NCBI RefSeq assembly: GCF_058153355.1
Contig: NZ_CM177019.1
Length of the DNA stretch: 64,000 bases
Direction: 5' to 3' (one strand)
The notes beneath the pieces were generated by a model. It was not told where the DNA came from and searched no databases. It saw nothing but the letters and a program-made list of their open reading frames with translations. The translations under genes were made by a program, and so were the position numbers. Within the stretch, counting starts at the first letter, position 1, and the number at the start of each line of letters is the position of its first letter. Shown here in pieces: positions 4,049 through 4,776 of the stretch.

Positions 4049-4438
4049 ATGATGTTTCTGAAACAGGATACGTTTAATTATGAAAAACAGTCCGTGGTGC
4101 TCAGTGAGCTGTCCGGGCTGCAGAGAATTGAATATCTGACGTTTGTTCAGCAGCGAACGGCAAAGTTTGATGCACAGGAGGGAGAACTGCCGGAGGCTGA
4201 ACGACAGATTGCTTTTCTGCGTATGGGAATGGATATCAATGCCTGGCTGGTTTCCCGCTCACTGTGGAATGCTGAGCAGTCTCAGGATGTTGAGACGCTT
4301 TGCGCATCCATTATGACAACATGGTCGTATGATGCGCTGGGCGCGGGGGCGGAGAGGGTTCTGTCGCTGAGCGGTATGGGGACCATTGAGAATGCCGGGG
4401 ATGATGATCATGAGGCGCTGACGCCGGAAAAGTCCTGA
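4049..4438 (+). CDS. G: tail assembly chaperone G
   Basis: GGAG then ATG ATG; MMFLKQDTF...VLSELSGLQRIEYL resembles lambda gpG. Confidence 0.8.
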   Translation: MMFLKQDTFNYEKQSVVLSELSGLQRIEYLTFVQQRTAKFDAQEGELPEAERQIAFLRMGMDINAWLVSRSLWNAEQSQDVETLCASIMTTWSYDALGAGAERVLSLSGMGTIENAGDDDHEALTPEKS

Positions 4439-4776
4439 CGCGGGAAATGCAGTTTGTCATGCGGCTTGCCCGGGAGTTCCGGCGGGCAGACTGGCGGCGG
4501 ATGCTGTCGGAAATGTCGGCCACTGAGCTTGGTGAGTGGGGCGATTATTTCCGGATGCAGAGCTTCAGTGATGTGTGGATGGATGCGCAGTTTGCCTCGC
4601 TGAAGGCATTGATCGTGAGAATGGTGTCCGGCAGCAGTGATGCTGCGGTGGCTGATTTCAGCCTTTTACCGGAAGAGAACGGGATACCGGAGCGAACGGA
4701 CGAAGAACTGATGCATCTTGGGGAAGGTATTTCCGGAGGTGTGCGTTATGGACCAGATAGCCGACCTGGTCATTGA
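4426..4776 (+). CDS. T: T-specific part of the G-T tail assembly chaperone, reached by -1 frameshift from G
   Basis: -1 frame is open from 4414 to 4776 and overlaps the end of G; only candidate slip site is GGAAAAG at 4426..4432. Confidence 0.55.
   Translation, partial: GKVLTREMQFVMRLAREFRRADWRRMLSEMSATELGEWGDYFRMQSFSDVWMDAQFASLKALIVRMVSGSSDAAVADFSLLPEENGIPERTDEELMHLGEGISGGVRYGPDSRPGH

Follow-up and report, generated by a model that had tools for sequence, protein, structure and literature searches.

GGAAAAG as a very probable programmed -1 frameshift site between the G and T tail chaperone genes of a lambdoid prophage

The window analysed here, a stretch of 64,000 nt from contig NZ_CM177019.1 (assembly GCF_058153355.1), is part of an E. 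coli/Shigella-type chromosome, in which a lambdoid prophage related to the ipaH-carrying prophages of E. coli occupies approximately the first 22 kb and is followed by the edd-zwf-pyk-aspS region. The prophage contains the gene order V-G-T-H of a lambda-type tail module, with G and T located between the tube gene and the tape measure gene. The features of this module that are relevant to the present analysis are the following.

3253..3993, plus strand: major tail tube protein gene, the homologue of lambda V (PF16461, Phage_TTP_12, E=3.4e-66, plus Big_2)
4013..4035, plus strand: terminator-like GC hairpin and T-run between V and G, found by pattern scan (7-bp all-GC stem followed by TTTTT)
4052..4438, plus strand: gene G, tail assembly chaperone, 128 aa, stop TGA at 4436-4438; CDS coordinates as for gpG in E. 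coli FDAARGOS_943
4412..4415, plus strand: weak Shine-Dalgarno (SD)-like GAGG, 10 nt 5' of the heptamer, a candidate for a possible minor stimulator
4414..4438, plus strand: G/T overlap, the sole segment in which a ribosome leaving G by a -1 shift meets an open T frame
4426..4432, plus strand: slippery heptamer G_GAA_AAG (P site GAA to GGA, A site AAG to AAA)
4432..4776, plus strand: T-frame (-1) part of the predicted GT fusion, 114 aa (VLTREMQF...GPDSRPGH), stop TGA at 4774-4776
4447..4449, plus strand: ATG drawn by automatic annotation as the start of a stand-alone T, likely not a real conserved start
4748..7789, plus strand: tape measure gene H, the client of G/GT, with an in-frame amber TAG at 6842-6844

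The V homologue lies directly 5' of G and is called major tail protein in mEp460, Tritos and FDAARGOS_943. The G product belongs to PF06894 (Phage_TAC_2; E=2.7e-40, 137.5 bits vs a cutoff of 27) and is 30% identical to lambda gpG in BLASTP (E=3e-15); the T product belongs to PF06223 (Phage_tail_T; E=3.9e-15) and is 39% identical to lambda T (E=7e-27), and H matches the tape measure families PF06791 and PF24622. The site equivalent to the hairpin between V and G carries a rho-independent terminator annotation in mEp460, Ayreon and N15, and this hairpin may set the ratio of V to G/T/H expression.

Direct reading of the sequence places the G frame from ATG 4049/4052 to TGA 4436-4438, and in the -1 frame that leads into T the last upstream stop is TGA 4411-4413, leaving this frame open from 4414; the preliminary description of this DNA had given the opening at 4414 and the G stop at 4438, and both coordinates are exact. 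The zero-frame codons of the overlap are GAG GCG CTG ACG CCG GAA AAG TCC TGA. Eight in-frame heptamers begin in 4414..4435 and three more lie just upstream; of these, only G_GAA_AAG offers cognate re-pairing in the A site (AAG to AAA), and this listing bears out the earlier claim that GGAAAAG at 4426..4432 is the only candidate. None of these same heptamers has the strict form X_XXY_YYZ. Bases 1-3 of the window site are GGA, not GGG, which places it outside the canonical tandem-slippage heptamers, and re-pairing of the P site from GAA to GGA leaves a second-position G-U (PMC6924986); the site does contain the tetranucleotide Z_ZZN, as A_AAG at 4429..4432 in the G frame. Translation predicts a GT fusion of 241 aa, made up of 127 aa of G and 114 aa of the T frame.

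GGGAAAG had been named correctly as the lambda site, as lambda has G_GGA_AAG at the homologous spot (NC_001416, 10109-10115). The window heptamer aligns with it and the -1 frame begins G-K-V in both, the post-shift reading being G-K-V-L-T-R-E-M-Q-F-V-M-R-L-A-R-E in the window and G-K-V-F-D-G-E-L-S-F-A-L-K-L-A-R-E in lambda; on this alignment, the two slip positions are strictly homologous. Lambda and the window also share homologous G and T proteins (PF06894, PF06223), the -1 direction and the A-site slip on A_AAG, and no RNA stimulator is evident in lambda, as in the window. The P-site codon is GGA (Gly) in lambda, whereas it is GAA (Glu) in the window, and P-site re-pairing would require a G-U pair in mid-codon in the window but at the wobble position in lambda.

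The GGAAAAG heptamer is shared with many isolated phages. Seventeen deposited phage genomes align with the 1-kb V-G-T-H junction at 95.4-96.0%; they include phi458 and the closest isolated phages, namely mEp460, cdtI, Tritos, HannyBb and Ayreon (95.5-96%). Matches to the 1-kb G-T region were also obtained in 1,849 of the 5,426 complete genomes of E. coli. Of the isolated phages, mEp460 and Tritos were aligned, and both share every base of the slip region GCCGGAAAAGTCCTGA with the window; in the slip-region alignment ...GACGCCGGAAAAGTCCTGACGCGGGAAATG... is common to the window, mEp460, Tritos and FDAARGOS_943, and Ayreon has the same heptamer and the same T sequence. Among the named phages, from which the distant T homologues were taken, GGAAAAG is present in the same frame and at the homologous position in N15, HK225, phi80, mEp043, LLS, Gifsy-2 and PSTCR8lys, while GGGAAAG is carried by lambda, phage 21, PhiR12_1 and an Stx2a phage, and VT1-Sakai has AAAAAAG. 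Two GenBank records name the site explicitly: a misc_feature of N15 (10027..10033) marks GGAAAAG as 'slippery sequence for -1 translational frameshift', and LLS carries the label 'minus-one programmed translational frameshift site GGAAAAG' together with a joined CDS. N15 (genes 14/15), HK225, phi80, LLS and mEp043 resemble the window in heptamer, frame and V-G-T-H order, and in the position of the heptamer relative to the conserved T-domain start G-K-[VA]-L...LARE. They are nevertheless distant relatives: in N15 and phi80 the codon before the heptamer is GCG or GTG, whereas it is CCG in the window, and G runs five codons past the site instead of only one; the T parts of the N15/phi80 group fall on a branch of the neighbour-joining (NJ) tree other than that of the window, and the T regions of phi80 and HK225, which are closely related, are 42-45% identical to the window T.

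We then surveyed G-T junctions, taken as a G-type ORF overlapping a T-type -1 ORF, by combining two IMG/VR scans, seeded with the window T and the lambda T, with the named phages. The resulting 165 junctions comprise 85 with GGAAAAG, 79 with GGGAAAG, one with AAAAAAG and none without such a site, and these proportions mirror the two seed queries and not natural frequencies. Exactly one in-frame NNNAAAG heptamer lies inside the overlap at every one of the 165 junctions, and the motif is therefore no chance occurrence. Conservation was followed in a gap-free alignment of 18 diverged GGAAAAG-type sequences that span 46-99% T identity. In this alignment the heptamer is invariant at 7 of 7 columns, against 0 of 30 columns upstream, and forms the sole invariant block in the 3' part of G; at zero-frame third positions, the three inside the heptamer are 100% conserved, compared with 28-61% for the ten upstream. 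The invariance of the heptamer and the pattern at synonymous sites point to selection on the RNA, that is, on re-pairing in both the P site and the A site, rather than on the protein.

The distribution of the heptamers on a tree of the T parts (a rough NJ tree, midpoint-rooted, of 79 unique sequences from loci L001-L177) is uneven. GGAAAAG occurs on all the deep branches (PSTCR8lys, Gifsy-2, the window clade, N15/HK225 and phi80/LLS), GGGAAAG is restricted to a single clade (lambda, 21 and Stx2a), and the AAAAAAG of VT1-Sakai is nested within that clade. This suggests, although it does not prove, that GGAAAAG is ancestral to the family and that the GGGAAAG of lambda is derived. To regard the lambda heptamer as the canonical site of the family, as the preliminary description did, was thus too narrow.

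The anatomy of the overlap, the homology of G and T, the lambda-equivalent position of the heptamer, its deep nucleotide conservation and its presence in viable phages are direct observations, and with them in view we consider it very probable that 4426..4432 is the programmed -1 frameshift site of lambda-like G/T chaperones, in the G_GAA_AAG variant also used by N15, phi80 and mEp460. In the mechanism that we propose, most ribosomes would terminate after ...Pro-Glu-Lys-Ser and so yield the 128-aa G protein, and a small fraction would slip back by one base with GAA in the P site and AAG in the A site. The tRNA-Lys (mnm5s2UUU) would move from AAG to its preferred AAA, and the tRNA-Glu would move from GAA to GGA, where it would form two Watson-Crick pairs (positions 1 and 3) and a G-U in the middle; the ribosome would then read on as GTC CTG ACG... 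to produce the 241-aa GT fusion (...LTPEK-VLTREMQF...). By analogy with lambda, the T domain of GT may bring the tail tube protein to a tape measure coated with G. The A-site step, in which tRNA-Lys moves from AAG to AAA, is a well-established core of bacterial -1 shifting. Transcriptional slippage was also considered and rejected, given that the run here has only four A's; the RNA polymerase slippage sites known to us have much longer homopolymer runs.

Read from its sequence, the slip would be tandem, with both tRNAs re-pairing, and of low efficiency. In E. coli no tetramer is more prone to shift than A_AAG, which does so at ~0.15% when unstimulated and at 5.6% with the IS3 pseudoknot (PMC4066793). 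Because the unstimulated rate is low, the efficiency at the window site may be below the ~1:30 of lambda, which requires only ~30:1 G to GT (Atkins 2016 review, PMC5009743). The same heptamer has been used in a purified E. coli system as the 'less slippery' partner of G_GGA_AAG, where it gave mainly the 0-frame product (Peng et al. 2019, PMC6924986); when the literature was searched for efficiencies of G_GAA_AAG measured in phages, this in vitro work was all that surfaced. A shift of a few per cent, giving the GT needed for tails, would be consistent with the conservation of the site and with the viability of phages that carry it, and weak slipperiness suits a system in which only a small fraction of ribosomes must shift. 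The window site also fits 'G_GA', one of the recognised X_XX intermediates between hexa- and heptanucleotide shift sites (Atkins 2016 review, PMC5009743), and, if its name is read as XXYYYY in line with the naming convention of that paper, the 'twofour' motif that PRFect derived from annotated chaperone frameshifts (PMC10885494).

The main mechanistic rival of the tandem slip is slippage of a single tRNA, in which only tRNA-Lys re-pairs on A_AAG (4429..4432), whether it sits in the A site or, as peptidyl-tRNA, in the P site awaiting TCC, while tRNA-Glu does not move; the first three bases of the heptamer would then be mechanistically irrelevant. Several lines of evidence make this conceivable. 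A_AAG alone shifts -1 in E. coli, with an efficiency that depends on the 5' NNA codon (PMC5009743, PMC4066793), the second-position mismatch of tRNA-Glu on GGA has been called unfavourable (PMC6924986), and A_AAG alone is common to GGGAAAG, GGAAAAG and AAAAAAG. Nevertheless, we regard it as rather unlikely, since it accounts poorly for the bases that precede the tetramer. The codon before GAA may be CCG, GCG, CTG or GTG, yet its final G, the leading G of the heptamer and a synonymous third position in all four codons, is invariant in 85 of 85 GGAAAAG loci, and it is fixed in the 18 diverged sequences in which the other third positions vary as given above. GAA is never replaced by GAG. Moreover, across the family the P-site residue varies (Gly, Glu or Lys), but the preceding base always equals the first base of the P-site codon (G_GGA, G_GAA, A_AAA), as P-site re-pairing requires.

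The tandem slip might be assisted by elements in the flanking RNA. The minimum free energies of 4433-4530 and 4395-4500 were close to those of shuffled sequences (z = -1.07 and +0.85), RNAalifold on the 18 diverged relatives gave a downstream consensus of -3.05 kcal/mol without covariation, and a search of 4200-4700 against Rfam with a permissive E-value returned a lone match, to sR41, which is a chance match (14.4 bits vs a gathering threshold of 54). A downstream hairpin or pseudoknot of the dnaX or IS type, which would lie 4-10 nt past the motif, was rejected on these grounds, as the folds resemble shuffles and show neither covariation nor an Rfam match. Upstream, the GAGG at 4412..4415 lies within the 6-17 nt range of dnaX-type SD-like elements, but its duplex with the anti-SD reaches only -5.6 kcal/mol, which is the 22nd percentile among background windows from the same genes. 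An SD-like 4-mer at a spacer of 9-14 is present in 26 of 34 unique sequences of the window subfamily vs ~10% expected, but in 0 of 11 and 0 of 61 in other groups, and none is found at GGAAAAG sites of the N15/phi80 type. A stimulator for the window site is not supported. In dnaX (A_AAA_AAG) too, the A-site slip from AAG to AAA is made by the single E. coli tRNA-Lys, and the spacing of the upstream SD-like element resembles that of the window GAGG at 10 nt; in contrast, dnaX has a downstream hairpin, whereas the window lacks a conserved one and its SD-like match is weak and within background, and the shift yields a truncation in dnaX but an extension in the window. We find it quite doubtful that in the CCG_GAA_AAG ('PEK') subfamily the weak heptamer is boosted by a dnaX-style SD-like element 10-12 nt upstream; if it were, no earlier cis-stimulator would have been described for G-T frameshifts of the lambda type, and lambdoid lineages might then differ in how their G:GT ratio is set.

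A stronger upstream element was seen in other loci. In the IMG/VR loci of the L035 type (L035:1459-1467, L036-L044 and L063), which are relatives at 77% T identity, a perfect 9-nt SD, AAGGAGGTG, lies within G, 8 nt 5' of GGAAAAG, with an anti-SD energy of -15.3 kcal/mol that is beyond all background windows in these genes. In this lineage, AAGGAGGTG may be a dnaX-style frameshift stimulator.

Automatic annotation draws a different picture of T. PGAP and most GenBank records of the window clade show a separate T of 109 aa from ATG 4447 in place of a joined GT, and the frameshift is marked in only a few records (phage 21, LLS and N15). If T were made independently from this ATG, by initiation or by termination-reinitiation after the G stop, no frameshift would be needed; in the window clade the ATG does lie 9 nt past the G stop, and a 109-aa T is what PGAP and several GenBank records annotate. 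This reading is very unlikely. In relatives that keep both the heptamer and the T domain, the ATG is lost, its counterpart being CTG, CTT, ATT or CGG; there is no usable SD spacing, as the GGGA lies 1 nt from ATG 4447; and independent initiation would not explain why the heptamer is conserved at synonymous sites. Independent initiation as a conserved route to T was rejected because ATG 4447 is not conserved, and the same comparison of sequences suggests that, as in lambda, the shift is needed to make T. Levin, Hendrix and Casjens (1993) reportedly found that lambda T is made only as the GT fusion. In addition, gpGT is described as a frameshift-derived product (Atkins 2016 review, PMC5009743).

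The last alternative is that GGAAAAG is a decayed lambda site, in which a point mutation of GGGAAAG has left GT lost or crippled in this prophage; although the heptamer is only one base off that of lambda, G_GAA_AAG is poorly slippery in vitro (PMC6924986) and the prophage has further lesions in H and J, decay is extremely improbable, as isolated phages carry the identical sequence, the 1-kb G-T region has matches in 1,849 complete E. coli genomes, the heptamer is invariant down to 46% T identity and bears a shift-site annotation in N15 and LLS, and G and T are just 30-39% identical to their lambda counterparts, so that the window site is not a recently mutated lambda site. The preliminary description had offered a choice between a variant site and impaired G-T production, and had held that functional relatives carrying the same heptamer would speak against impairment. 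Such relatives exist, for example mEp460, Tritos and N15; the first half of that choice is supported by these isolated phages and by the GenBank labels, and the second half falls.

The heptamer at 4426..4432 is thus a very probable programmed frameshift site in a prophage whose apparent defects lie elsewhere. The H gene (1013 codons) is split into two ORFs in one frame, 4718..6844 and 6959..7789, by the amber codon, whose context is CTG TAG AAA; FDAARGOS_943, the closest complete genome (96.8% identical across the shared 10.7-kb tail region), has CAG, and in the records inspected of mEp460, Tritos and Ayreon the tape measure is one CDS of ~3 kb. Decay of the prophage or an error in sequencing would account for the amber. 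The tail-tip gene J (10165..13562) has a 1-nt deletion at ~12968, where the window reads GACGGC-CCCACC vs GACGGCACCCACC in E. coli E110019, in which gpJ is intact; as a result of this frameshift, the ORF stops at 13011 and its continuation in another frame occupies 13059..13562. This copy of the prophage probably cannot build tails, owing to the lesions in H and J and not to the G-T site, and with H and J disrupted any GT made here would have no functional client. Within H, a run of eight A's at 6871-6878 (AGA AAA AAA ACG in frame) contains A_AAA_AAA; it is also present in FDAARGOS_943 and is probably incidental.

The practical point for annotation is that GGAAAAG should count as a genuine slippery site of G-T pairs, with GT drawn as a fused product. 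As a recoding signal the site is nothing new in kind, being an already annotated and widespread variant of a textbook case. It is a modest curiosity for the study of frameshifting that G_GAA_AAG, the 'poorly slippery' control in vitro, is a naturally selected and deeply conserved shift site in a large group of lambdoid phages.

Other differences from related prophages lie beyond the tail module. After the lom-like gene, 14324-17603 holds ~3.3 kb of extra or different sequence compared with the FDAARGOS_943 prophage, and this differing sequence includes an 815-aa ORF at 14287..16734. At ~19470-22150, where relatives have an ipaH-type effector gene, there is a 583-aa ORF on the minus strand (19472..21223), and the prophage ends near 22.1 kb, adjoining the edd-zwf-pyk region. 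The content of the prophage suggests a Shigella or EIEC-like host.
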